From Sphaerodactylus townsendi (taxonomy: Eukaryota): a stretch of DNA of 64,000 nt. The DNA is taken from positions 22,630,001-22,694,000 of the forward strand of contig NC_059437.1 in the NCBI RefSeq assembly GCF_021028975.2, read 5' to 3'. Positions 651-55,780 of the stretch are shown piece after piece. The position numbers and the translations under genes are program-made. The notes beneath the pieces were generated by a model. That model saw only the letters and a program-made list of their open reading frames with translations, did no database searches and was not told the DNA's origin. Numbering within the stretch: the stretch's first letter is position 1; every line of letters begins with the position of its first letter.

Positions 651-2508
651 GGCGGAGGACATTCCTCCATGCATCTAGTAAAACAATGACACACCCAGCC
701 GCAGGGTGGGAAAAGGGCAAGGAAGAAGGAGATGTAATCCCCCAGGGATATTCTTGAGATCCCTGATTGTGGGTTAAGATTTTGTTCTCAAGGTGCCAAA
801 TCAATACACAGGCGGTATCAATTCAGAGTACAGGTGGGAAGCTCATGATTGAGTGCTTCGTTGTTGTTTTAAATCCTGCATATAGACATGTCAGTTCTCT
901 GTTCGCAAGTCAGATTTTGTATGGAGGACTGTTCAGTCACGTGAACGCTGAGTCTGAAGTGGAACAGCCCAGACACCGATTTGTCATCCCTGTGAGAATC
1001 AAGCCTAAGACTCACCTTTATGTTCATACCTTAAGAAATAAGGCAGCTCGGCACCTTCTAGTATTCCAGCCAATGAGTTGTGACCAAATGTACTGAGATG
1101 ATAAAGATTTGGACCCTTAGCCTGATCCCAGTGTTATCAAAGGATAATATGGCATTAAGGATCAGCTTGTGTTGCCACATTTTTATCATATCATAGCCCA
1201 TGTATGTGGCATTGATGATAAACACAATGGGTTGTATTCTAATATTCTGCTCAGTGAATGGTGGCCCCTTCTTGCAGCACGAAGAGCTTTCTTCTAGTGC
1301 AAGAGACTGAGCCCTCTTTCCTTGGAGTAAGGCTCCTTATGTAAGGGAAGATGCTTCTGTTAGCTGAGCAGAGAAGTGAGATAATATATAGTGCCATGAA
1401 AATGATGATTGACATGATCGTAAAAAGGGGGATCAGTGATAGGGGAAGGAGGGTTAATGGATGGTGTAAAGAAAGTGTGCTTTTGTGAGATTGTAATGTG
1501 AACTTAGCATGAGAGTAGCCATTTTGTATGATTTTAGAAAATAAATGTGGTGTCTGTATGCTTTGTTTCAGTAACTGTAGCTTGAAGAAGATTGTTTTAC
1601 AATTCTCCAAGGTCACAAAAGATCATTGAATGAGATAATTGGAAAGTGTGTTCCTGGTAGAGTTTGTAACTGTCTCCACCTACAAGCAGTTGAAATAATA
1701 CTGGCACTTAGATTAATTAGTAGAAATGATTTAATTGGATGTATAGTGTCACCTGACATATAGCTTTTTCTGTAATGCTTTAGAATATTCTAAGAGAGTC
1801 ATCTTTACTTATCTGCTTGTGCTGTTACATGTATTATTTTCCTCATTTTTGGACTTTGATCAGTGTTCCTAAGAATGCTATTTTTGCTTGTTTTTTGGAA
1901 CTAAGGCTGAGTAATCATGAATATTGCTGACAGGACTATTCTGGAACTTTCCCTTCTTATGCTGGCTACTGCTATATTCCAATTAAGTTTTTGTTCCATT
2001 TGTGAATGTCACTACCAGTGCCTTTGAACTGTAATTCTTCTTACAATAAATCAAAAATAATTTTTACTCAGTTTGTATGAACTGTTTTTTGGGGGGGGGG
2101 GGGCAGAAAGGACCCACACACTAATAGGTCCTGAGTGAGTAATCAGGGACTTTGACAGATGGGGTCAGTGTAGGTCAGAAATGTCCAACTGTGGCGCTTC
2201 CAGATGTTCGTGAACTACAATTCCCATCAGCCCCTGCTGGCTTGGCTAATATTATATTTCTGGATTGAAGTAAAAGTATTTCATCTTACTAATATCAGCA
2301 TAAAGCATCAGTCAATAGTAATTAATATTTAAATAGAAATTAACAAACCCCGTATAAATTCTTTAATAACATTTTGCAATTTATGTCTTATGGACCTACT
2401 TGCCTCAGTTAACTACAGGTCTACATCTTGTCAATTGCAACACTATCACACCCAACATGCCTGGGTCCAAAGGTATGGACATTCATAAATATCAGCCTTT
2501 CTCCTTAC

Positions 2509-2787
2509 TTTCATGTATTCTTCAATCTTCATCAGCCCTTTTGTCGTCGTGAATTCCTTGCATGTCAGCCACTTGATATTTTTCACTTCATATTTGGCCT
2601 CAGCAACTGAAGAAGGCTCAGCGAAGAATTTCTCCCGACTTGGAACAACGGTAGGACTTGCAATACCCGCCTTTTCCAGCTGTTCTTTTATAACAACCTG
2701 TTCAGCACTTTTGATCACATCATCAACGATTATATATGCAAGCGCTGAGATAGCGTCAAAGGGAATTTCTGTGTTTTTCCAGTCCAT
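2509..2787 (-). CDS. AKAP14: A-kinase anchoring protein 14 (AKAP28 family), 5' coding exon (93 codons); remaining exons not found, presumably left of the window
   Basis: MDWKN...ISALAYIIVDDVIKSAEQV (RII-binding amphipathic helix)...KNIKWLTCKEFTTTKGLMKIEEYMK matches recalled human AKAP14 [24 protein letters not shown]. Ends at phase-0 donor AAA|GTAAGG. Position and orientation relative to NDUFA1 as expected from synteny. Confidence 0.85.
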
Positions 2788-9953: not shown

Positions 9954-12900
9954 ATGGCTCAGTGGATCTTCTCCCTTCTCTTTGGCACAACAGTTCTCTG
10001 GACCATGCTCATTCCACACAGTTCCTTTCCGACAGGGGCTCCTGCCTCCGCCTGTGAGAATATGTTACCTGGGCACACTGGGATCCAGCCCCAACAAACT
10101 CTGGCTCCCTTTGAATTTCTGGTGAGCTCACCATCTTTCCTAAACGGGCAACCGATTAACAGTAAGTGCCTCTTTTTTGTTTGCTTATGTTAAAACTTTT
10201 CACTTTAAATAATATTATGGCAATCAAGGAGGAAGTTGACTTTTCTATTCAGTTTTTGTTACACTAACAGTTAAAGATGTTTCCTTAAAGTACACTAAGT
10301 AGGGTTGCCGGGTTGGGAAATACCTGGAGATTTTGAAGGTGGAGCCTGAGGAGAGTGGGGTTAAAGGACTTATATCCTGGCCTTCCATCCTCCCCCCCAC
10401 CTCCCACCACAGATCTTCAGGATAAGTTACAGCCATTTTAAAACCACGAAACACAGTTTTACAGCCAAAAGACAGGCTGTAATGTCTCTCTTATCAGAAT
10501 AATTAAAACCAACAATTTTTAAAAAGAGACCAATCCAATATAAAACTAAAGCTAGCAAGAACCCTTGTAAAAAGGGTGAGTTTTAATGTATGGTGAGATG
10601 CCAGTGGGGATAGTGTGAAGTGGACTTCGCTTAGGAAGGAATTCCAGAGCAATGGAGAAATTGCAGAGAAGCCTTGCCCTCCTGCAGCATATGTCAGGTG
10701 GTGGGACATGTTACCCAAAGTGGAGACAGAGTGTCCCTTTTAGAGTTGGGGAATTAGTGAGAGCAGATATTTTGCTTAGCAAGGGGTTGGGCAAGCTCAG
10801 AATCTTGGTTTCCAACTTTTACAGAGAGTTGCTTAAGGAAGAAATCCGCAAGAGAATGAAATAAAGTTTAATAAGTTTATTAAAGAAAAAATAATAAATA
10901 TATAAGCACACAATAATCAAAGCAGCAGAGAGCATACACACAGTCCTAGGATGTCTATAGAGTTGAGGATATATGTTTGGAAAAGCAGAAGAATTTGTTG
11001 GGGAAGGGTTATATGACCTGTTCCTGAAGAAGGAGTCCAGAAAAGCAGTGTCTGCGCTGAGCTTTCAGAAGGTTGGGGAGAAAGCAGATGGCACACAGTG
11101 CAACTGACAGAAGTACTGGGCACTGGGTGAGGGGATAATTTATAGGGAAGATTGGATCCTCTAGCCATGGTAAGAGAGCTTAATCTTCATGGACCAAGGA
11201 AGGTCCTTGTTTTTCTGGGGAAGACAAAGAGGAACATTACACTTAAGGGTTGGCTAATCTAATAGGTTGAGCACTTGATTTAAGTGGCTAAGCTGGGGAG
11301 TGCTTGAAAGGGGGAAGGTAGCTGCTTACATTACAGCTGCAAAACAGTGTCAGTGCAAAAAAGGCTGGCTTTGGAGAGACGTTAATCAGAGGAGGAAATT
11401 AAGATTAGTGTTGAGCTGGCAGGAACAGAGTAAGCACATTAGCATGTTCTTTGTCGTAGTGAAAATTACATAGACCAGGACTGGAGGTGGGAACAGCTTC
11501 TACGGCAGAAAGTATTGTTTACCTTAATCCATTTAGGAAGGGTGTGGGGCAGGCATTTTGCACAGAGAATATGGGTGAAGGCAAGTCCAGTGAGGATTTT
11601 CTGTCCTTTTGAGTACACTAGCAAATGCAGAGAATGGGCTCCCTATCTTGGCATTACACTGCTGATTCACCATTGAAGATTGAGGTTTCCAATCCACCTC
11701 ATCTTTGCAAGGAAGATTTGACATTCTAGAATGTGATCCTCTGCCTTTGAAGTCATGTGATCCATTTCACTACCCGGAGTCTCTGTTACCGCATTGCTCC
11801 CTAGGTTTGCCAGATCCCACTGACCATGGAGGAATGTGGGGGTGTATGGTTGCCAGATCCCAATTGGGACGTTCTTGGAGATTTGGGGATGGAACCTGGG
11901 GAGAACAGGAACCTCAGTTGGGTAGGGCGGTTTATGAGCCCTCTGGGGGTAGGGCGGTTTATCAAATTGAGTTAACAACAACAACAACAACAATAATAAT
12001 AATAATAAATGCCAATAGATTCTCCCCTCCAAAGCAATCCAGGAGAACTGATCTCTGTAGTCTAGAGATGAGCTGTAATTCAAGGGGATCCAACCCCCTG
12101 TTCTCTTTCCAGTTCAGATCGTCGGGCCTGCATACAGAGGGTTGCTATTAGAGGCTCGCTCATTTCGCTCCACCACTGCACTGGGCTTTTGGAAGAGTCC
12201 ACCCAACAACACCAAATACTTGCAGGTAAGAGAGACAAAGTCATTCTTCATCTCCAGCCAGAGGTCCTAGAGTTCAACCAGAAAGCTTGCAGATTGAGCT
12301 GTATAGTTCTACAGTAATGGATTGGGTTTGGTATTAACTTGTCCTGCCACCCCTGCTTTCCTTTTAAAATATTATTCTGTTGTCTGATTCCTAAATAACA
12401 CTCTCAGTGTCCCCCTTCACAACTTCTGACTAGGTGCATACCTGCTTAGTTCCAGTAAATTGGTAGTATTAGGTGTTCTGCAGCTATTGGCTGGGTCCCA
12501 ACAGTGGGATTTACTTAAATTTCTTACTAGTACTTTTTTAGGGTGCTTGAAACATAAGTAGATGGAAAGTATACCATTCCAGTCCTTTACTTACTGGTTC
12601 TCTATACTGGCCTCTACTAGATTACTTCAACTTATTGGATCCCTTGATGCTGTACAGATGAGCTTGGATTCCAATGGCAACATGTATCCAAACAGCTGTA
12701 CTAAAACTGTTTCATGAACCATACATAACATTAATAACCTAGGTGGAAACATAATGCTATTACATTCCAATGAAAAAAATTTGTGACACACACGGACATT
12801 TGATTGCGGAATGGCTATGTCATGTACAGAATGGCCTTTGACATGGGAAAAAGTTGTAGAGCCATAATGATCTGTGCAAAATTCAAAAACAAAAACCATG

Positions 12901-15568
12901 TGATATTTTTTATTTGGACCAGTCAAACTGACGCAAAATATTTTGTATGTGTTTGAGCTCCCTAGGACTTTTTATCAGGCTGGATGATTCAGAATTTTAA
13001 ATGGCTAGAAAGCAGGTTGTTTAGGCCAGGATGTTAAGGTCTGATTTTGCATGCACCCTCTGAGAGATGCAAGCAGGCAGTTAGCTTAATTTTATTGCTG
13101 GTAAGATGCCATTTTACTGGACATTCTCTGGGAAACTGTATTCAGTCCATGTCAGTCTTTTCTTTGCTCTCAGGTTGGAATATGGAAACCACCCTAAGTC
13201 CATTCAAAACTGTCTCAAATCATAATTTAGAATCAGAGCAAGAGTGTCAGGCAAAGTCCAAAACATTCAATTTGTTTGGATCTTTGACTGCCAGTGAGCT
13301 AAATACTCTTAATCCTGTTTAAAATGTAGAAGTGTTTGAGAGCAATTATGTAAATATTTCCCCCCTCCCTCTTTCACAGTGCTCTGGAAACCCACATGGA
13401 GCAGTGACTCATTCCAACACCAATTTAAAAACAAGACAGACTACTTATACATGGCTCCCACCTAACTCTGGATGTCCCCCGGTTGTTACATTCATGTAAG
13501 TGTCATGCATCCTTTAAAAAAATTGCTGCCTTCCTTTAAATTCTCCAAGGGGGCATAATGGCTGCTAAGCAACTGCCACAAGCTCCTTTCTCACTGTTTG
13601 ATTCACAATAATTTCATTCTTCCAGGATGTAAAGGTGTGTTTTTGATTATAATGAACTCTTAGAAACTGAATCAAAGCAGTTGCAAAGTTTCTCCCCTGA
13701 TGCATATAAGACATACAGACAAGTGGTCCATCTAGTCCAACATCCTGTTTGACAATGAGACCAACCCGTTGCCCTTCGGGCCACCAACAGGACATAGAGG
13801 CAAAGGCTTTCCCTTAGTGTTGCCTCTTAGCAAAGAAATTAAGAGGTTACTGCCTCAAATTGAGGAGGCTTCATTTAGCCATCATGGCTTGAAGGCACTG
13901 GTTAGTATTTGGATGGGAGACCACTAGAGTTGCCAGTGTCCAGGTGTGGCCTGGAAATAGAGATCAGTTCCCCTGGAGAAAACGGCTACTTTGGAGGGTG
14001 GATGGCATTCCACTGTGCTGAAGTCCCTCCCCCGTCTCTACCCCCCAAATCTCCATGTGTCTCCATACCCAGACCTGGCAACCCTGGAGACCACCAAGGA
14101 TGTTTAGAGTCATGATGTAGAAGCGGGGAATGGCAAACCACCTCTAAGCATCTCCTGCCTTGAAAACCCCATTGGGGTTGCCATTAGTCAGCTGCAACCT
14201 GACAGCATTAATCAGTGGTGGGATTCAAGTAATTTAACAACCGATTCCGGTGATGTGATTCAAGTAATTTAACAACTATTTGTTGACAAGCGCCATTTTA
14301 ACAACCGGTTCTGCCGAAGTGGCGCGAATCTGCTGAATCCCATCACTGGCATTAATACTACTAATAATAATCATAATTCTTCTGACCATGAAGCAGTGCA
14401 TTCCACATTTACTTGTCTATCCTGAATATATTGCCCATGAACTTTATTGGGTGTACTTGAGTTCAAGTGTTAGGTGCGTGAGAGAAAATCTTTGCCAATT
14501 TTCTGTACTCCATGGACTACTTTGTAAACCTCTATCACGGTAGACTGCAAATGTCCATCTCTCAATGTGTACTGAGAACTCCCCCCCCTTTTTCACATTA
14601 GGGCAACAGTCGCCCTGTCTCATGAAATCTACTGGACCAACATCAGGTCTAAAGTGATCTGGAAAAGTGAGTAACTCTCTAAATCACTTTTTTGAAATAA
14701 GGCCCTGCTTTCAAGGAAACTAACTGCTTCCCCTAAAATAGCACATTCTGCGTGGAAAGAATACATAGCCAACGGAGTGTGATACTAGTAGTGATGAGAA
14801 CCAGGTTCACATGGAAGCTCCCTGGGTGACTTTGACCAGCCTATTTCACAGCCTTACCTATTCACAGGGATATTGTGAATATATCTATGAAGAGAACGAT
14901 GTATGAGCCGTGCAGTCTGGTGGTTAGAATGCCAGATCAGGATCTGGCTGACCCAGCTTTGAATCTCCACTCTGCTGTAGAGAATTGCTGAGGACCTTGG
15001 CCCAGGGCCACATTCTCAGTCTAACAGGGATGTTGTGAGGATAAAATGGAGACGGAAAGAATGTTGTAAGCCACTCTGAATCCCCATTTGTGCAAAAAGT
15101 GGATATACACAAAGTGAGTAAATTAATAAAATGTCTCCCTTGAGCTGTTTGGAAAAACAGCAGCATAAAAATGACATAGATAATAGATTTTTAAAGTCCA
15201 AGAAAATTGTTACATCTGTTGATTACTAATTTGAGCCTCCAAGTACACAGGAAATATATATCTGACTAGCAGATGGTTAAGAAGGATATTACCTGTATTA
15301 ATTGTCTCTATCCATTTTGTCAAGAGTTGAAAATAGGGCAGTGGGCTGAATCCAGAAAGACAATTCTTAATATTCTTGAATGAAAGTGGTGAACAAAACT
15401 GAACCTCTCGTTTTATATTACGTCAGCTTTAGCTCAAACTGGAAAGATCTTAATCTTTTTTTCTACATTGCAGATCCCAAAGCTACATGTGGAGCTGAGA
15501 TGCCAACCAGAAAACTTCCTGCTGCAGCATTGTTATCTCTGCTACTGATTTTATTTGAATACATTTAG
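9954..15568 (+). CDS. Secreted, probably GPI-anchored stand-alone Reeler-domain protein (putative defense protein / FRRS1 N-terminal-like), 198 aa
   Basis: Exons 9954-10161, 12113-12225, 13380-13495, 14602-14666, 15474-15568; all GT-AG, phases 1/0/2/1 consistent, 597 nt. Signal peptide, Reeler motifs FPTGAPASACENMLPGH, YRGLLLEAR, LGFW, CSGNPHGAVTHSN, TWLPP, FMATVALSHEIYW, then hydrophobic C-terminus AAALLSLLLILFEYI*. AATAAA at 15596. Confidence 0.88.
10480..10700 (-). mobile_element. L2-type LINE 3' fragment in Reeler gene intron 1
   Basis: Translation GFSAISPLLWNSFLSEV...LKLTLF resembles the L2 ORF2 C-terminus (AFSVAAPRLWNSLP...LKTxLF). Confidence 0.55.
11973..12008. repeat. Compound (AAC)n(AAT)n microsatellite
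   Basis: aacaacaacaacaacaacaacaataataataataat; produces the spurious poly-L and poly-T/I ORFs in the track. Confidence 0.9.
14213..14348. mobile_element. hAT MITE with perfect 8-bp TSD
   Basis: TIR cagtggtgggattca / tgaatcccatcactg; TSD GCATTAAT at 14205-14212 and 14349-14356. Confidence 0.8.
14906..15130 (+). mobile_element. tRNA-derived squamate SINE
   Basis: tRNA-like head (gtggttagaatgccagat...tttgaatctccactc) and LINE-derived tail (ttgtaagccactctga...). Related copies near 3960-4180, 17455-17640, 42735-42925, 47880-48090, 57060-57245 and 63120-63340. Confidence 0.6.
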
Positions 15569-16325: not shown

Positions 16326-19249
16326 TCAGTCAATGTTTTCCAAGCCCTGAAAAATAAAAAGTTAGACCAAGTTAAAGGCTTCTACTACATGCAACATTGA
16401 TGCGATTCAAGAGTTAAGAAATCCTTTTCTAAGGTTTCTGTTTATTCTGTTTATTTTTACTAACAATGGCAAGATCCTGTGCAGTGCAAAGAGAGCTGAC
16501 TGAATAACAGTAATTTTCCTGCCTAGTTCTCCCTCCACCTCTGTTTCCCCTACATGCTTCCAAGGTTGGTAAGCAGACCCCCAGGGCCAGCATGAGGGTT
16601 TAAATGTGAGGCTGCCATAAAGGGGGAGGAATTAGTGAAAATCACTATCCCTTTCTGAGTGGAAGTACCTATGATCAATGTATCTTCAGTGCAACAAACA
16701 AACTCTTTTCTAACATCAGAATTGAGCTATAACAGCTATTCTGGTTGCCATTGGCCCCACTGATGTGATGTCACAGGGCATCAGGCTGAACAGAAAATTC
16801 TTCAGTAGACATCCCGTGCCAAAGCAACAGAATTTGGCACAAAAGGGTTAAGAATCATTGTAATTCATTTTGTTGAAATTCTGTGGACTAATTTTGTGGA
16901 ATAATACAAGGTTCTACATTTCAAAAGATATAATGAATCTGCAAAACTGCAAAAGAAATCCATGACTATGCTGCAACCCACAGTGGCTGATTAGGCACTG
17001 AATGCCTCTTGGCGTAATGGAGAAATTACAGATATGAAATGTGAAACCCATGAGTAACATATACCAATTTAAACAACATAAACATTACATGGGTGCTCTG
17101 GGCATTAAACAGCACCTTGTGGACAAGGAAAACTTGACATGCTTCAGAACCATCTGCAGAAAATTGATTAACATCCATTAAGGACATGGAAGCCAGAGAC
17201 TGTACTAATATTACTCGGGTAAATCAGCCCCAATTCCTGCTGCCCAGAACCCACCAGTGGTTTCCAACTCCCCACCCCACCCCCACGGTCATTTGTTTAG
17301 ATCACAGTGGCTGTTGGGTTTGGGGTTTTTTTGTTATTTGTATGATGAGATAACATGGCAGTCAAATGCCAGCAACCTCTGGAAATGACAAAGGCTGTGG
17401 GACAAACAATGGCAAACAATGGAAGAAGAGGTAAAAGGTTAGGAGTCTATGATGTGCTGTGGCTAATGTGTTAGAAAAGGATCAAGGAGAACTGGGCTCA
17501 AATCCCCACTCACCCACAAAGTTTACTTTAGACCAGTTCGCTCTATCTCAGCCTAATCTAATTCGACGAGTAGTTATAAAGGATAAAGCAGAGAAGTAGA
17601 GAATCACACACATCACTCTGAGCTTATCAGAAGAATGGAGTAATGCTCAGGCATCAGACAGCAATACTGCGCACACAAAAAGGGAAGCAGGAAAAAAACA
17701 AGGAACTTCTTGAAAGCAAAAAAGAGAACTGCCATCCACCCACCCCCATATACAAAGGTCTAAATCCCTGAATTAGTCAATCTCACATTGAAAATAATGG
17801 CAGCATTCAGAATTTCTACAACAATTCTTCATCCAGCACTATTACTTTATCAGTGACTTATTTTCTTGTCCAAAATGTTCTGGCCACATCCTGCTCTGTT
17901 ATCTCCTGGAGATGGGGTGGCTATGAACAGAAGTTAAAGGGTGGATCCCAGCCCAGAATTCACCTAGGGACCAAGGCAGAGGTGAATTGCTGATGAACTT
18001 AAGTCTTCTAATACTAGTTTTGCCCAGAAACTTTGTTCCAAAAGGTCTGTTCAAAACTCACCTTTGATTCATAGTAGCGATTGGTTTGGGAAACACGCCT
18101 GTCCCTTTCCATCAGATACCACTGATAGGTGTTCAGAGCAGTCCGCTTCTCCTATGCATAGAAATGTATCAGATAGTATAGAGGCCAGAAAAAAGAGAAA
18201 TGATACAACTGTAACAGAAAAAAATTAGATGTAAAGCAAAGCTGACATCAGAATCCAAGTGATGCTGGTTTAGGTGCAAAGATTTTTCTGCAACCGCATT
18301 ACTGGACATTATAATCTAACATGACACCCAGTTAAATCTGTAGGTAGGGATACAGTTCAACAGAGAAGGTGATAAAAATGTGTCTGCACCATTTCAAGCT
18401 GCTAATATGGGATTTTAAAAAAATCACTGAATCAAATCTCCACAGTTCTGAAATGGCGACTACTGAAATGCCATTATGTTTTTTGCCACAGATTTATATC
18501 AAAGAGCTCAGTGTGTGCATAGGCCTCTTTGTTCCCAAATTATCAATTCTCTAACTGGGCCAACAACAGCTACTAAACTAGGACAGCCAAACAGGGATTT
18601 AAATGCAGAGTTGTCCAGTCTATTCCATTCTTATTGAACACTGCTTCCAAAGAGCCCATGATAACATATAGAGGTCACCTCTCCCCTAGTTTTAGTGTCA
18701 CAACAACCCAGTGAGGCAGTTTAGGCTTAGAAAGGTAGTGATGTAGTTGTTACCACATAGTAAACCATAATCTGTCACTTTAACTGCTCCTCAATTCAGG
18801 CTGCTCAGTCATTTCATGTGTAATATTGAAATGCTACGAAGTCAGACTAAAATCTTATGATAAAGAAGATTTTTTACAGTCAGATAGGATCGTCGGTGGG
18901 TAAAGTGTCTGGTAGAATAGGCCCAAACCCCTACTCAACCACAAATCTCACTGGTGATCTAGGAACAGTCACACACGCTTTCAAATTAGCCTACCTTACA
19001 GGGTTGCTGTGCGGATAAAGTAAAAGAAAACATGACATACCGCCCTTAAGCTCACGGGAGAAACTATAGCATAAAGCATACTCGACAGAAAGAGTCAGCT
19101 AGGGAGCAAAAATGGAAACCTTCTTTTCACGGCTGACACACGCTCACCTTTCCCCCATTCGTGTATTTGTGGATCCTGGTGGTGGAGAATCCAGGGATAC
19201 ACAAACAGACATACATGACGGTCAAAGCGGGCAGGATCTCGTACCACAT
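16326..19249 (-). CDS. NDUFA1: NADH:ubiquinone oxidoreductase subunit A1 (MWFE), 70 aa, 3 exons
   Basis: Exons 19249-19148 ([34 protein letters not shown]), 18151-18062 ([30 protein letters not shown]), 16346-16326 (GLENID*). GT-AG introns; AATAAA on the minus strand at 16279-16284. Not in the ORF track. Confidence 0.97.
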
Positions 19250-40528: not shown

Positions 40529-41581
40529 CTACAGCTCTTGGAAGAATGCCACTGCTTGTCTGAACAGGTTCCTTAAAGAGTTCAGCCTGGTGAGGGGCCT
40601 GTGGCTGTTCTCTTCCCCTTGAACGTCCTTGCAGTCTCCTTTGAACCTGTTGCTCCCACCACGTCTGGATGACACACAGTTGTTGTTGGTGTTGCACGCT
40701 CCTAGCAGGGCCAAGTCTTCATCGCAAGCCCCCAGAAGCTCCTTCAACTCCCTTGGAGCATCTGCTCGGAGGTACTGCCACGCTTTGCACCCATTGTGGT
40801 CCCGAAGGCTTGTGTTGGCCCCGTAGGCGCCCACCAGTACCTTGATGACCATCTCATGTCCCTGAAGAGCGGCCAGGTGCAGAGGAGTGAGCCTGCCACT
40901 AGCTGTGAATACGTTGACATCTACCGGGTAATTCTGCTTCTCGGCAAAAGTGATGACTTCTATCAAGTCCTCGTGGTGACCATGTTTGGCCAACCAGTGG
41001 AGGACAGTGAAGCCAGTCACAAAGTCTGTCCTGGAGAACAGGCTGGGATCCTGGTCCAGCAGCCGGAGGATGCTCTCTGCATCTCCCTGGGCCACAGTCA
41101 ACATCCACTCATGCTCCAGTGGGTCCAGAGCTAAAGACAAGTCCTCAAAGTTGGCTTCCAGAAGAGAGTCATGGCCTTGCTGCCCGTCAGAGAGGCTGCT
41201 GGCATTGGTGTCTCCCTTCGACAAAGCTGCCAGCCACACGGGTTTGGCCTCGCTGCTCTGAAGGAGGATCTCTTTCAGTCCTTTCCTCCTCGTGCTGCCT
41301 CCAGCCACGGAGAGCCTGGCTGAGTCTGTGCCCGTTGGCCAGTGATGTGAACGCCTGCTGGCCCTGCTCAGGCTCCTGTTGAAATTGGACTGCTGCGCTC
41401 GGCGGAGAATCAAGCTCCCAGGCCGGAGGCTGGTGCTGGGGGACTGGCTGCCCACAGATGCCTGCATCTGACTCCGGGAGCTGTCCTCTGGTGCACATGG
41501 CTTGAGCTTCTGGGATGTCTGCTGTCTGTCCAAGCATCCACCCCTTTGCTGTTCTGACATATTCTCTCCACCGAACTCCAT
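40529..41581 (-). CDS. SOWAHD: Ankyrin repeat domain-containing protein SOWAHD, 350 aa, intronless CDS
   Basis: LDPLEHEWML, ankyrin repeats DFVTGFTVLHWLAKHGH and GRLTPLHLAALQGH..VIKVLVGAYGA..LRDHNGCKAWQYL are typical of the SOWAH family; syntenic position between RPL39 and SEPTIN6. Confidence 0.92.
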   Translation of the reverse strand: MEFGGENMSEQQRGGCLDRQQTSQKLKPCAPEDSSRSQMQASVGSQSPSTSLRPGSLILRRAQQSNFNRSLSRASRRSHHWPTGTDSARLSVAGGSTRRKGLKEILLQSSEAKPVWLAALSKGDTNASSLSDGQQGHDSLLEANFEDLSLALDPLEHEWMLTVAQGDAESILRLLDQDPSLFSRTDFVTGFTVLHWLAKHGHHEDLIEVITFAEKQNYPVDVNVFTASGRLTPLHLAALQGHEMVIKVLVGAYGANTSLRDHNGCKAWQYLRADAPRELKELLGACDEDLALLGACNTNNNCVSSRRGGSNRFKGDCKDVQGEENSHRPLTRLNSLRNLFRQAVAFFQEL

Positions 41582-42954
41582 TATTCCTCCAAAGTTTCCT
41601 ACATTTCCGGCGACAAGTAAAGTTTTATTTTTTGCAAAGCCGCAAGCGTTGTTTTCCGGCTAGTAAGATGGGTGCTCCTGAGCTTTTGACTGCAGCGCTT
41701 CCTGATTCTGTTTGCAAAGGGGAAGAAACAGTTTCGGTTACTCAGGGGGAACAAAGTGTTTGTGGTGAAAAGAGCTGCCACAGCCTGGTCTGCAGCAAAG
41801 CAGGTTGAGATTCCGTGGCAGGATACGTTTGCTTTTGTTGATCGGGACTCTTGGAAAGACCTTTTGTTCAGAGTGGGTTGTTGTGATCCTGCCTGTAAAT
41901 TTCTCTGCCTCTCAGCCCTTTCCAAATACTTGCTCAAAATCCAGTCCTCTCTTCCATATTTCTAAAGTCTGATTTAAGCTATATTCTGTTCTACAAAAAG
42001 ATGATAGTAGGGTTGTATATTCCTCCGCCACAGCACAAAGCATGCTGGATCTTCTTTATTGCAGATTGTTCTGCCTATGTCCTAGTGCCTTCCTAGCCTT
42101 CTTCTCCCCCCACCCATCCATTTAAAAGTAAAAATACACTTTGGCATAAATGCTCTTGTAGCAAAGTACCATGTTTAATAAATCTCAAAATAATGGTTTT
42201 AACATAGGCAGCAGGTAAAAATGAATGATAATTCTCATATTCGTTTAGGACTATATTCTAATGCGGAAGCATACAATTTTCTCAACTGCTGCACCTCAAC
42301 TGACTGCATCAATTCCACTATCATCCTTCTGTGGAACAAAGTATAATGCTGACTAACGTGAAAGCACTTTCTCCTGGGACTTCACACTCACCTGGCTTCA
42401 CCTTTAAACTAGGTTCCTACCTGTGAAAAGCATCTGCACAGCCCATGTAGCTACTTTTCAAGGGTAAGAGCTCAGTTTGAACAAGAAGAACCTGGGCCTG
42501 TGCAAAGTTCCACAGAAGAATCTTTTTGTCTTGTCTTTGCTAGGACAACTTTTGAAACTTGGACAGGAGAGTAAACCCAATTTTTTAAAAATGTCTGGAG
42601 ACAGTCAATAGTTGTCATCAGTGTGTCTGCAGCAAGCCTTCATTACCCAGAATTCACACACACATATTTCTGTTACTTTTGGATTGACCAAATCTGACAG
42701 GTTTTTAGGATACCAAAGACATGTTCACTAGTGTAATGTAGTTATTAAGGTGCAGAATGTGGAAGACCCAGGATCACAACCCCACTCTATCACGGAAGCT
42801 TGCTGAATGACCTTGGACCAGTCGTTCTCTCGCAACCAAGCTTCCCTCATAGGGTTGTTAATAAGAATAAAATGAAGGAGCAAAGGGCCATATGTGGTGC
42901 CTTGAGTTTATTGGAAGAAAGGCAATCACCCTTTCAAAGTGCCTTCAGCTTTGA

Positions 42955-51664: not shown

Positions 51665-53939
51665 TGTTGTTTTAATTGTTTTTTTTATTGTTTTGGCTTT
51701 TTCAGTGACTTGTTTAAATAGCTTTGTCTTGTGTTTCATTGCTGTGTTTTGTTTAATAAGTTTTGTTGTAACCTGCTTTGAGGATATCTCTGGAGAAGCA
51801 GCATGTCAATTTCCTAAATAAATAAAAACTCATGGAAAAAGGTTAATTTGGTTGTTTAAATCACTACGCGACAATCAAGGGGTACGATAGACAGGAGATG
51901 AGGAGTGAAGGTGACAGAACGTTATCTTCTTGTTTAAGACAACTCAGTGTGTTCATGCCCAGGTGAACTTGAATGAGACTCGAAGTCTTTTGCCCTACTC
52001 ACAGCCAAAGCCCTCAAAACACACAGGCAATCGGGGGGTTCCTTTTGTAATCTATTTTATTTGCAGATTGTTTATATAATATTTGGGGTGGCCAGAAACA
52101 TATCACAAACAATCATTCTAAATGCAATGCAATATCAATAGAAATAACTAGAAAAACTGACACAATAAAAATATGAAGCTAACTGCGCAACCCTCGCTCT
52201 CAGTCCAACCTACCTCACAGGGTTGTTGGGAGGATGAAGGGTAGACCCACTTGCACTGTTCTGTGTTCTCTGGAAGAAAGCAAGATTAAAAAGTAGCAGG
52301 TGGATCTTGCCCACAACTTTCCAACTTCCAGGTGGATCCTCCATACTAAATACATTTTGGGGTGGGAAGCTGAGTTTCCAGGTGGGGCCTGAAGATCTGC
52401 TGGAATTTCAACTGATCTCTAGACTACAGAGATCACTTCCCCTGGAGAGAATGACTGTTTAGGTGTCAAACTTGTGGCCCTCCAGATGTTATGGACTACA
52501 GTTCCCATCATCCCCTGCCAGCATCATGTTGGCAGGGGACGGTGGGAACTGTAGTCCATAACATCTGGAGGGCTGCGAGTTTGACACCTGTGGCTGTAAT
52601 CAATGACATTATACCCTGCTGAGGTCTCTCTCTTTCCCATTTATTGCCCTCCCCAGGATCCACCCCCCCCCCCAATCTCAAGGAATTCCTCATCCTGGAA
52701 TTGGTAAGCCTACCTAACAGGCATGTATGTACTGAGTGGATACCCAGCTAACATAAACTGCCCCAAGGACCTTAGTGAGCGAATGAATACAAATGCTCGC
52801 GGCCCAGCCCCATAAGGCTCAATTGCAGTACAGTTCCTTTGCCTGCAGTAGGTTCCAGGTTGAATTTCTGGCAGCTGCAGTGAACAGTATCAGCTAGCAG
52901 GTGAGGTGAAAAACTGGAGAGGATGCTGCCAATAAGATCTTGACCTTGTCAATGGTTAGATTCCGTAAGAGGTCATGTGTACTCAGCAGTAAATCTTACA
53001 CTGAGATGCCTTCTCAATTCACATAGTCCACAGCTCAGCCTCTGGAACTTGCACCACATCACAGGCTAAACTTTTGCTGGGGTGGCTGTTATCTCACTTA
53101 CCCAGCAGGAAAGGATACAATATTTCCTCAAGGCACAGCTGATGCCAAAACCTACCTTAGCCCACTTTTTATCTCTAAGGGGCCAACTGAGGTCAGCCCG
53201 CTGCCATTTTTATGTTGTATTGGGTCTCCCTAACAAGGCAGGGGAGCATCATGGGGAATCATGTCTTTTCTGGGTACCCAATTTTGTGCTGAAATCTCTT
53301 GTAATATGCAGAAGGTGTAGGCCGGGAAAGCAGGAGGATATAGGACTCCACTAGGCAAGTTCACATGCTTCCTAATAGGGGGTGGGGGAGGGTGTTCCTT
53401 CCAAAGCCCCTTAAATCCTGGAGCCACCTTTGATCTGGTGCCCCAGAAAGGTTGTGTGTGTTCTGCATGTTTATGCAAACTTCAGGCGGCTCCATTTCCC
53501 TCCGAGGGTGCATTTCCGAGGGAGGCTGAAATTCTGCACACACTTGCACAGATCTAAGCATCCTAGGACCAGTGCCGGATTTACCTATAGGCTTGGCAAG
53601 CTGAAGCCTGGGACCTCAAAATCTAGGGGTTCCTCTGGCCAAGGTGTGCAATATTTTTGACACTATCATAGGTCTTTCCTACAAATGCTGTCATAACGCA
53701 CTGTGAGCTCTAAATACCCCTTCAGTAGTGTCCCTTGTGCTCCATTTCAGAATAATACTGTCATAAGCAGATAACACGACACTAGCATTGATTTCTGTAT
53801 TGATGTTGTCCTTCCCGGACTTGCCTGAAGTGGATCCCATTATGTGACCCCCATTGTGTGGGCCCCATCTTCCTCTAATCCTAAAGGTGGAGGATTGGGA
53901 GGGGCCTCCCAAGTGGACTAGCCTGGGTCCCCTCTTCAT

Positions 53940-55100
53940 CGACATCCGGCCAAGTAGCCGACAGGCTGACCACTGAATTCCTGCCTAGGATGGGGAAGCA
54001 CTGGAGGAGGGCGGGTGGCGGGGAGGGGACAACGAGACAGAAGCCGCTTTAGCCGGGGAGGCTGCAAGGCCGGCGCCCCCCACCCCCCGCCAGCGGCGTC
54101 TTCGCCCCCTCCCTCCCTCCCTGCGTCCCTCCCGCCCGAGCCATTGCGAGCCACCCGGGCAAGCGCGCAGGCACCTCGCAGCGGCGCGGACTCGTCCCTG
54201 GCGCGGCTGGCCTGCACCATTCCGGACGGCCGGAGGGGGAGGAAGCGCCGGGCTCTGCAGCCGCCTGCGGGAACGGCCCGAGGGCGAGCGGGGCCGCGCG
54301 GGGGTCTCTGCAGCGCCCTGACCTGGGCAACCCCACCGGGGCCGTGCCGGGCTCCGGGCTGCAGCCAGCGGCCGGGGGGCGGCTGCGTCCCCGCCCGGTG
54401 CCTCCCCCTCGCCAGTGCCGCAGTGGCCGGGTCTTCCCCGCCCGGGTAACTGAGCCTCCCCGGCAGAGGCGGAGGGCGAGTGTGCGGCTCGCTCGGCTCC
54501 TGGCGGTGGCGGAGGGGCCATGGCGGCCACCGAGATCGCGCGCCAGGTGGTGAGTGCGGGGCTGACGGGCGGGCGGGCGCGCACCGCACCGGAGTGGGCC
54601 TGCCTGGCCGGGCTGAGCGCAACCTCCGAGCCGGGGCAGCCGGGCGTGCGTCTGCCCGCCCGCCCGGGTGCTTTGCCAGAGAGGGAGGATGCCGGCTGCG
54701 CCGCGGGCGAGGCAGAGGCAGCTGCCGGGATGGGTGGAGGGATGCCCGCATGGCTTCTCCGGGGCAGAGCATGGCGGGCTTCGGACGGGGCGATCTTGGC
54801 TGCCCGATTTGGAAGGGCGAGAGCCGTGGGGGGATGGGGGTGGGGGGGTTAGGCAAAGGGGCGGCCGGCGGAGAGCAGGCGGCCTGCTTTGGAGGTGCCT
54901 TTCTCGGGGCGGGGGGTGGGGGCGGGGAGGAAGCAGTTCGCTTCTTTTCCAGGTGGGCTGGAGGGGCCCTTTCCCGACCCAGCAGGGAGAGCGCTTGGTT
55001 CGGGTCGACCCGAGAAGGGCTGTCTGGCTGTCTGGGGGGAAAGGGGAGGAGAGAGGATGCTGGATTGAATGGGGGCAGGAGATGCTTTGCGGGCGACTCT
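53940..55100 (+). promoter_or_regulatory. SEPTIN6 CpG-island promoter
   Basis: Very GC/CpG-rich with multiple GC boxes; surrounds SEPTIN6 exon 1. Confidence 0.8.
54520..54549 (+). CDS. SEPTIN6: Septin 6, first coding exon (MAATEIARQV); intron 1 appears to run past the end of the window
   Basis: gccATGGCGGCCACCGAGATCGCGCGCCAGGTG|gtgagt matches recalled human MAATDIARQV; strong Kozak context; syntenic position. Confidence 0.9.
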
Positions 55101-55780
55101 TTCCAAAAGGGAGATGATGGGCCTCAATGTGGAGGGCAGCAATAAGGGAGATGCAACTTTTTTTTTTGGTACAAACGTAAGATGCAACGGATGGTTTGTG
55201 GGAAACCCTTAGTTCGCGTTAGGATGGCCTTAATTGTGTTGAACAGGAATCGCGAAACGTAGCATCCAGGGGGAGGGCGGCGCTTTGCACAATTGCCTTG
55301 GACAGGCGATGAACCAAAGCAGGCACCTCTACAAAGTGCTTTGGGTCGGTTTGGAAATCCTACCCAGGCAGATGGATCTCCATTGTGTTCAGTGCCTGTG
55401 CTTCTCTCTCTAGATGCTTGCACGGTGGCTTCCTTTACTCGGGTGTAACATGAGCCCACCGAGGCATTTCCCAATCTGACAGGCATGCACGAAAGGGGGA
55501 TTTTTCAAAACCGGAGGGGTGGAAGCTTTTGTTTCCGCACAGGCTCCAAAAGGTCCGGCGCTCACCTGCTCCGTGTCACGTGTGTCTTTCTCTGCTACAA
55601 TGAAAGAAAGCTACCCAGGCACTTCAGAGGCGAGAGATGGAGCCTTTCCTTTGTGCTCAAAATGAATGGGGAAACCTTGCCGCTCACCAGCGCTTGAGCT
55701 CATTTGAGGTTTCCCATTCCTTTTGATGAGAAGGATCTCCAAGATTGCTGACCTGCCTTGGAGAAGAGTACTGAGTAGCA

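Follow-up and report, generated by a model that had tools for sequence, protein, structure and literature searches.

What does a stand-alone Reeler-domain protein do in a gecko? The question is raised by a stretch of 64,000 nucleotides from Sphaerodactylus townsendi (contig NC_059437.1, positions 22,630,001 to 22,694,000), here called the window, which holds a five-exon gene for a 198 amino acid (aa) protein that RefSeq names "putative defense protein 3". A prediction made earlier from the letters alone (the original prediction) had taken it for an uncharacterised cell-surface or mucosal defence gene. We find that the gene is intact and was previously annotated in RefSeq. By its place in sequence trees it is a member of the jawed-vertebrate si:dkey-251i10.2 / Hdd11-like orthogroup, and its role is probably in skin colour rather than in mucosal defence.

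The window product is 100% the same as XP_048370013.1 and XP_048370014.1 (P0001). All four introns are GT-AG, with phases 1, 0, 2 and 1, and one of the eight boundary combinations tried stays open through to the TAG at 15568. Splicing of the five-exon model is supported by the agreement of phase, conservation and RefSeq models, its sole support, since three mapped runs cover the introns evenly and contain no exon-exon joint among the 15 joints listed, and so are uninformative on splicing. The exon variants listed include two substitutions and no frameshift. The Pfam Reeler profile (PF02014) matches residues 34-158 over its whole length (model positions 1-131 of 131; E 3e-24, 86.4 bits against a cut-off of 21). 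The protein has a single sequon (NNT at 101), four cysteines (34, 108, 139 and 173), hydrophobic stretches at both termini and no basic residue past the C-terminal tail, and its mature domain is basic, with an isoelectric point of 9.6. Its N-terminus has the pattern of a signal peptide (hydrophobic residues 1-20 followed by the conserved F/Y/L-P mature start), and cleavage would fall after residue 24, judging from the aligned F/Y/L-P start of the homologues. In all of this the original prediction held: the same exon positions and fitting phases, a product equal to the RefSeq protein, a single Reeler domain borne out by the Pfam profile, and the sequon, the four cysteines and the hydrophobic ends as it had described them.

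Two word-based searches returned 65 and 70 clusters, 107 in union and 104 of them named. The named clusters span squamates, tuatara, turtles, crocodilians, frogs, sturgeon, teleosts, sharks, rays and chimaera; none of the 104 is from birds or mammals. An exhaustive HMMER search gave the best 150 of 1269 representatives, 138 of which were new and were placed in a FastTree phylogeny. Among the 17 of these that were looked up, the three falling among tetrapods were the salamanders Pleurodeles and Lissotriton and the tailed frog Ascaphus. These representatives stand for 50% clusters, in which a bird protein more than 50% identical to a reptile representative would stay hidden. Birds and mammals are therefore likely to lack the gene, which falls short of proof because the searches were leaky and the 50% clusters may mask members. 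The original prediction had known of no such gene between NDUFA1 and AKAP14 in human, in line with the lack of mammals among the named clusters. Birds also seem to be without the gene, a point that it did not raise.

In a maximum-likelihood tree of 37 selected rows, the gecko protein falls in a 30-row clade with other reptiles, amphibians, sharks, chimaera and teleosts (support 94/96, just short of the tool's star mark). The same clade has a support of 98 in wider trees, and its internal branching roughly follows the species tree. It contains three teleost proteins with the UniRef label Si:dkey-251i10.2, which would stand for the zebrafish gene of that name. The gecko protein is 48% identical to the arowana protein so labelled and 42-56% identical to most teleost members. 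Outside the clade lie a second paralogue (gar, paddlefish, chimaera and sawshark), lamprey proteins and hemichordate proteins, all with similar hydrophobic tails. An extra chimaera copy (P0304 / P0194) sits on a long branch inside the clade; its contig equals that of P0057 in length, which suggests a tandem duplicate. A lineage-specific gene was rejected because the orthogroup spans chimaera and sharks to reptiles, and with it went the origin that the original prediction had proposed, a gene retained in reptiles or lineage-specific; the gene is older and wider in range than that. A fragment of FRRS1 was also rejected, as the Reeler domain stands alone in the gecko protein, with no DOMON or cytochrome b561 domain, and the FRRS1-type P0283, which has all three domains, falls outside the clade. 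The "ferric-chelate reductase" labels on some of the orthologues are misnomers.

Published expression data place the zebrafish gene in pigment cells. In the data of Saunders 2019, si:dkey-251i10.2 is listed under Xanthophore alone, 20th of 30 by specificity (0.69), in 88.8% of cells and with the second-highest mean expression (PMC6588384). In those of Howard 2021, at 68-70 hours post fertilisation (hpf), it is found in 100% of the cells of cluster 15 versus 4.6% of cells elsewhere, with a log fold change (logFC) of 3.48, and the paper identifies cluster 15 as xanthophores (PMC7886338). The small glycosylphosphatidylinositol (GPI)-anchored protein thy1 is likewise a zebrafish xanthophore marker, in 88% of cells (PMC6588384). 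In goldfish skin, "putative defense protein 3" has 0 fragments per kilobase per million in white, 23 in yellow and 9.5 in brown fish, and is tabulated beside perilipin-3-like, slc2a11-like and GCH1-like (PMC9854719). The legend of a tree-frog chromatophore figure includes DFP1 (PMC11640764).

The modelled fold is that of an F-spondin-type beta-sandwich Reeler domain. An alignment of 142 rows gave a model of residues 25-173 with a predicted local distance difference test (pLDDT) score of 96.8, replacing an AlphaFold model (47 rows) with a poor N-terminal segment. Its top structural match was the F-spondin Reeler domain (VIA Z 10.7, root-mean-square deviation (rmsd) 3.2, 122 residues aligned; Foldseek E 1.2e-7). 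A sequence search of solved structures retrieved F-spondin alone at E 0.02-0.03 with alignment A1 and nothing relevant with alignment A2. An atlas search excluding Reeler clusters gave no usable match.

The protein is likely to be GPI-anchored, a prediction from sequence pattern and conservation. Residues C173-G-A lie 25 residues from the end and are followed by a spacer and a hydrophobic tail with no cytosolic segment. A hydrophobic stretch closes the sequence in 86 of the 107 clusters, with a median of 2 residues beyond it and, in 72 of these 86, no K or R there; the tail is short or missing in 13 clusters and under the threshold used in 8. The GPI-type architecture of the original prediction thus recurs across the family as a conserved tail without a cytosolic part. 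Among the 86 tailed clusters, 35 carry both C139 and C173, 49 carry neither and 2 carry just one, counts that come from related rows; the joint loss occurred at three separate tree positions (ray-finned fish, ranoid frogs and the snake Ahaetulla). That the two cysteines are kept or lost together in 84 of 86 clusters points to a disulfide C139-C173, next to a putative C34-C108 bond, and such a bond means that C173 would be retained in the mature chain. GPI attachment would then be at or just past C173, with C173-G-A the strongest candidate for the omega site in geckos. The stalk past C173 is longer in several frogs, so omega would not always be this cysteine.

Our preferred interpretation, to which we give somewhat less than an even chance, is that the protein is tethered by GPI to the surface of xanthophores and binds glycans of the matrix or cells nearby. 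Anchored at the xanthophore surface, the protein would grip matrix glycans or adjacent cells through its Reeler domain, and this binding would help xanthophores to settle in the dermis, to spread there and to stay in place. The gene would have been lost in birds and mammals after the loss of dermal xanthophores. Neither birds nor mammals are known to have dermal xanthophores, which would account for the range of the gene. By analogy with zebrafish the gecko gene would be expressed in xanthophores. The adhesion role is suggested by analogy too, from the basic charge of the Reeler sandwich, the glycans bound by related proteins and the example of PLET1: a crayfish Reeler protein binds lipopolysaccharide, peptidoglycan and zymosan (PMC10149183), and PLET1, a GPI-anchored protein with a predicted Reeler-like fold, aids migration through matrix (PMC6492104).

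Several observations weigh against this interpretation. The zebrafish gene is listed in two of the four zebrafish data sets searched, and both of these cover sox10-lineage cells only; in that of Howard 2021 it also appears in an earlier cluster, 16, at 48-50 hpf (PMC7886338). It is not listed in the accessible whole-skin marker tables of Aman 2023 (PMC10495112), nor in the part of the Lencer 2021 supplements examined (PMC8367380). The accessible marker table for leopard gecko embryonic skin has no "defen" entry (PMC11260152); the xanthophores of these embryos are immature, with GCH1 and XDH unexpressed (PMC11260152). Cichlid hdd11 is under-expressed in an egg-spot comparison (logFC -2.19; PMC5012078), and in salmon fin a sea-louse infestation lowers hdd11 about 25-fold (PMC7177938), a change that would also suit an immune role. 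The link to zebrafish runs via the teleost labels, because the zebrafish protein itself is absent among the matches. Moreover, the second paralogue (rows P0181, P0182, P0166, P0174 and P0188, with several sawshark copies) shares the same automatic name, so that the name does not tell to which paralogue the goldfish, cichlid, salmon and frog entries belong. The word-based search was leaky, as the second search refound 14 of the 22 reptile clusters. The tailed proteins of lamprey and hemichordates make the architecture older than its use in xanthophores. Finally, the region upstream of the gecko gene has no M-box, SOX or PAX3/7 motif and two E-boxes against 1.1 expected, with no enrichment of pigment-cell motifs.

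Four other explanations were weighed, not all of them mutually exclusive with one another. The protein could be a skin or mucosal innate-defence protein, tethered or shed, whose Reeler domain grips microbial polysaccharides and hinders biofilm, and it could still be made by xanthophores; we regard this as rather unlikely. Crayfish and shrimp single-Reeler proteins do bind bacteria and inhibit biofilm or growth (PMC10149183, PMC12113285), and core residues are common to distant stand-alone Reelers, but the shrimp proteins are described as a signal peptide plus Reeler and secreted (PMC12113285). Salmon hdd11 responds to lice (PMC7177938) and the zebrafish protein changes in a copper-inflammation proteome (PMC7271515), yet both changes are decreases, not inductions. 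Our literature search found no binding or infection test of a vertebrate member, and defence leaves the bird and mammal loss unexplained. The mucosal defence idea of the original prediction leans on a borrowed insect name, whereas expression of the likely zebrafish orthologue points, in the best data, to xanthophores; a review treats Hdd11 as insect-only (PMC11821578). There would have been no true loss if mammals or birds still had the gene as an orthologue that evolves fast and has moved elsewhere, for example PLET1, which is GPI-anchored and has a Reeler-like fold according to Phyre2 on template 3coo (PMC6492104). The incomplete searches and the masking by 50% clusters leave room for such an orthologue, but the 104 named clusters without a bird or mammal, the unnamed representatives in the tetrapod clade, all of them salamander or tailed frog, and a gene family that otherwise evolves slowly make it the least probable of these explanations. 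No match named PLET1 occurred among the named clusters of the two word-based searches. PLET1 lies on another human chromosome, which counts against it as the orthologue.

The modelled fold is also compatible with a cofactor or metal pocket in the mature domain, at which several observations hint and which we treat as a lead only. The protein would then bind a cofactor or metal, at the xanthophore surface or in the lumen of the pigment organelle, with a cytochrome-f-like pocket (free N-terminal amine, H41, M37 and H118), and would act in the chemistry of pteridines or carotenoids or as a scaffold of the organelle. This we consider unlikely. In a wide fold search, cytochrome f chains ranked 2 and 5, residue 1 aligned on residue 1 (Z 9.0, rmsd 3.0, 131 aligned; Z 8.1, rmsd 3.2, 133 aligned), but unrelated beta-sandwiches score about the same (PECAM-1 8.4, pilin 8.3) and cytochrome f is absent from the rows listed by Foldseek. 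H41 is found in 141 of the 142 rows, H118 in 139 and M37 in 124, and the motif CxxMxPxH in 123; the three residues are thus near-invariant, but they are conserved family-wide and hence in no way specific to pigment cells. Weak matches to the bacterial choice-of-anchor V family, from 3 of 10 family proteins (best E 5.6e-9, all under the cut-off), and the high expression of the zebrafish gene in xanthophores would also fit. In cytochrome f the heme is bound through the N-terminal amine and CxxCH, and choice-of-anchor V carries CxxCH as well. This heme attachment motif is absent from the gecko protein, and C34 has C108 as its predicted partner. An uncleaved membrane anchor, or a secreted 169-aa form ending after exon 4 as the main product, is very unlikely in our view. 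Two skink records (P0006 and P0007) run on through the exon-4 donor, end at IWRSE and so have no anchor tail, be it by annotation or in reality; in the window the same read-through (14667-14675) would stop after KSE. The tail is also missing from a few isoforms of fish, frogs and snakes, and intron 4 has an AATAAA at 15125. The SE ending, however, follows from the donor consensus GTGAGT, and the skinks retain C139, which would be unpaired without exon 5, so that a missed exon 5 is equally likely. As for an uncleaved anchor, the tails are short, often with His or Gln, and have no cytosolic basic residues. A conserved secreted isoform as the main product was rejected.

The neighbours of the gene in the window are listed with its exons in Table 1. 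The original prediction had put it between AKAP14 and NDUFA1, and neighbours were found on both sides; the AKAP14 side rests partly on a weak Pfam match, so that this exon is called AKAP14-like.

Table 1. Features of the Reeler gene and its immediate neighbours (positions within the window).
Feature	Position	Strand	Remarks
Coding exon 1	9954..10161	+	Predicted signal peptide, aa 1-24 (9954-10025); mature N-terminus FPTGAP; C34, M37, H41
Coding exon 2	12113..12225	+	aa 70-107; Reeler core strands; sequon N101
Coding exon 3	13380..13495	+	aa 108-146; C108, H118, C139; alone matches Reeler at E 0.00047
Coding exon 4	14602..14666	+	aa 146-168; final strands of Reeler domain
Coding exon 5	15474..15568	+	C173 (codon 15488-15490; candidate omega C-G-A), spacer, hydrophobic tail, TAG
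Candidate polyadenylation signal AATAAA	15596..15601	+	
AKAP14-like coding exon	2506..2787	-	In open reading frame (ORF) 2449-2841; transcription directed away from the Reeler gene; Pfam AKAP28 E 0.011, model positions 1-22, under cut-off
NDUFA1, three coding exons	16326..19249	-	ATG 19249; exon 1 Pfam MWFE E 2.6e-10; tail-to-tail with the Reeler gene

Introns 1 and 3 of the Reeler gene contain very high-copy repeats (at 10242-12081 and 13574-14357), with a summed contig depth of up to about 2 million compared with about 80 in unique parts, and a short duplicated inverted element lies near 14213-14302 in the intron 3 region. Past NDUFA1 (window 19300-41659) follow a UPF3-type gene (+, 21313), RPL39 (+, ~31900) and an intronless ankyrin ORF (-, 40532-41659), presumably SOWAHD-like. 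The order AKAP14, NDUFA1, UPF3, RPL39 and ankyrin gene is that of human Xq24. No RNF113A motif was seen between NDUFA1 and the UPF3-type gene in the window, where human carries an intronless RNF113A copy, between NDUFA1 and UPF3B. Synteny here refers to the window's own neighbours, and gene order to one species. A GC-rich island at 53900-55200 (63% GC) has long open frames on both strands; the single frame tested gave no Pfam match.

Our search of the literature, which covered sources other than subscription journals, found no functional study of the vertebrate gene, in keeping with the "uncharacterised" of the original prediction, and no paper tying the gene to xanthophore loss. Three things are suggested as new by the analysis: a pigment-cell role in place of a defence role, a double loss and a pocket like that of cytochrome f. 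The tie to a strong zebrafish xanthophore marker makes the gene a candidate species-wide xanthophore marker for reptile colour biology, a marker that the leopard gecko study describes as still needed (PMC11260152). It is a candidate, too, for a surface molecule behind the contacts between pigment cells from which stripes and spots arise. Should birds and mammals both prove to have lost it, it would belong to the few genes that trace the loss of a cell type. A bolder version, which we hold to be quite unlikely, is an ancient vertebrate xanthophore gene, masked by its insect name, for a GPI-anchored protein with the build of cytochrome f and an amine/histidine cofactor pocket. Yellow cells would need it, and birds and mammals would each have deleted it from between NDUFA1 and AKAP14 when they lost their dermal xanthophores. 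If true, the double deletion would be the genomic scar of a lost cell type, and the pocket would give stand-alone Reeler domains their first biochemical function.

Among known systems, the closest are zebrafish si:dkey-251i10.2 and the teleost "putative defense protein Hdd11/3", which belong to the same orthogroup by the tree and have the same length and architecture, but the ray-finned fish members differ from the gecko protein in lacking the C139/C173 pair. FRRS1 (Reeler-DOMON-cytochrome b561) has the same Reeler subtype, with a template modelling (TM) score of 0.89 between predicted models. The Reeler domain of F-spondin (PDB 2zot, 2zou and 3coo) is the best fold match (TM 0.59-0.67 by query) and has a Cys in the loop corresponding to C139 of the gecko protein, but it shares 17-20% identity and is part of a large secreted multidomain protein. 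The large domain of cytochrome f shares a signal peptide, an aromatic-Pro N-terminus, a beta-sandwich and a C-terminal anchor with the gecko protein, which differs in sequence (11-12% identity) and lacks the CxxCH motif and the small domain. PLET1 is similar in size, at about 200 aa. It is GPI-anchored, as is predicted for the gecko protein, and has a predicted Reeler-like fold (PMC6492104), but it is expressed in epithelia and dendritic cells. The arthropod single-Reeler defence proteins (Hdd11, Noduler, PcReeler and LvReeler), from which the automatic name originates, share the signal peptide and one Reeler domain. They are described as secreted, microbe-binding and infection-induced, whereas the vertebrate protein is not of this soluble type and has a conserved anchor tail instead.

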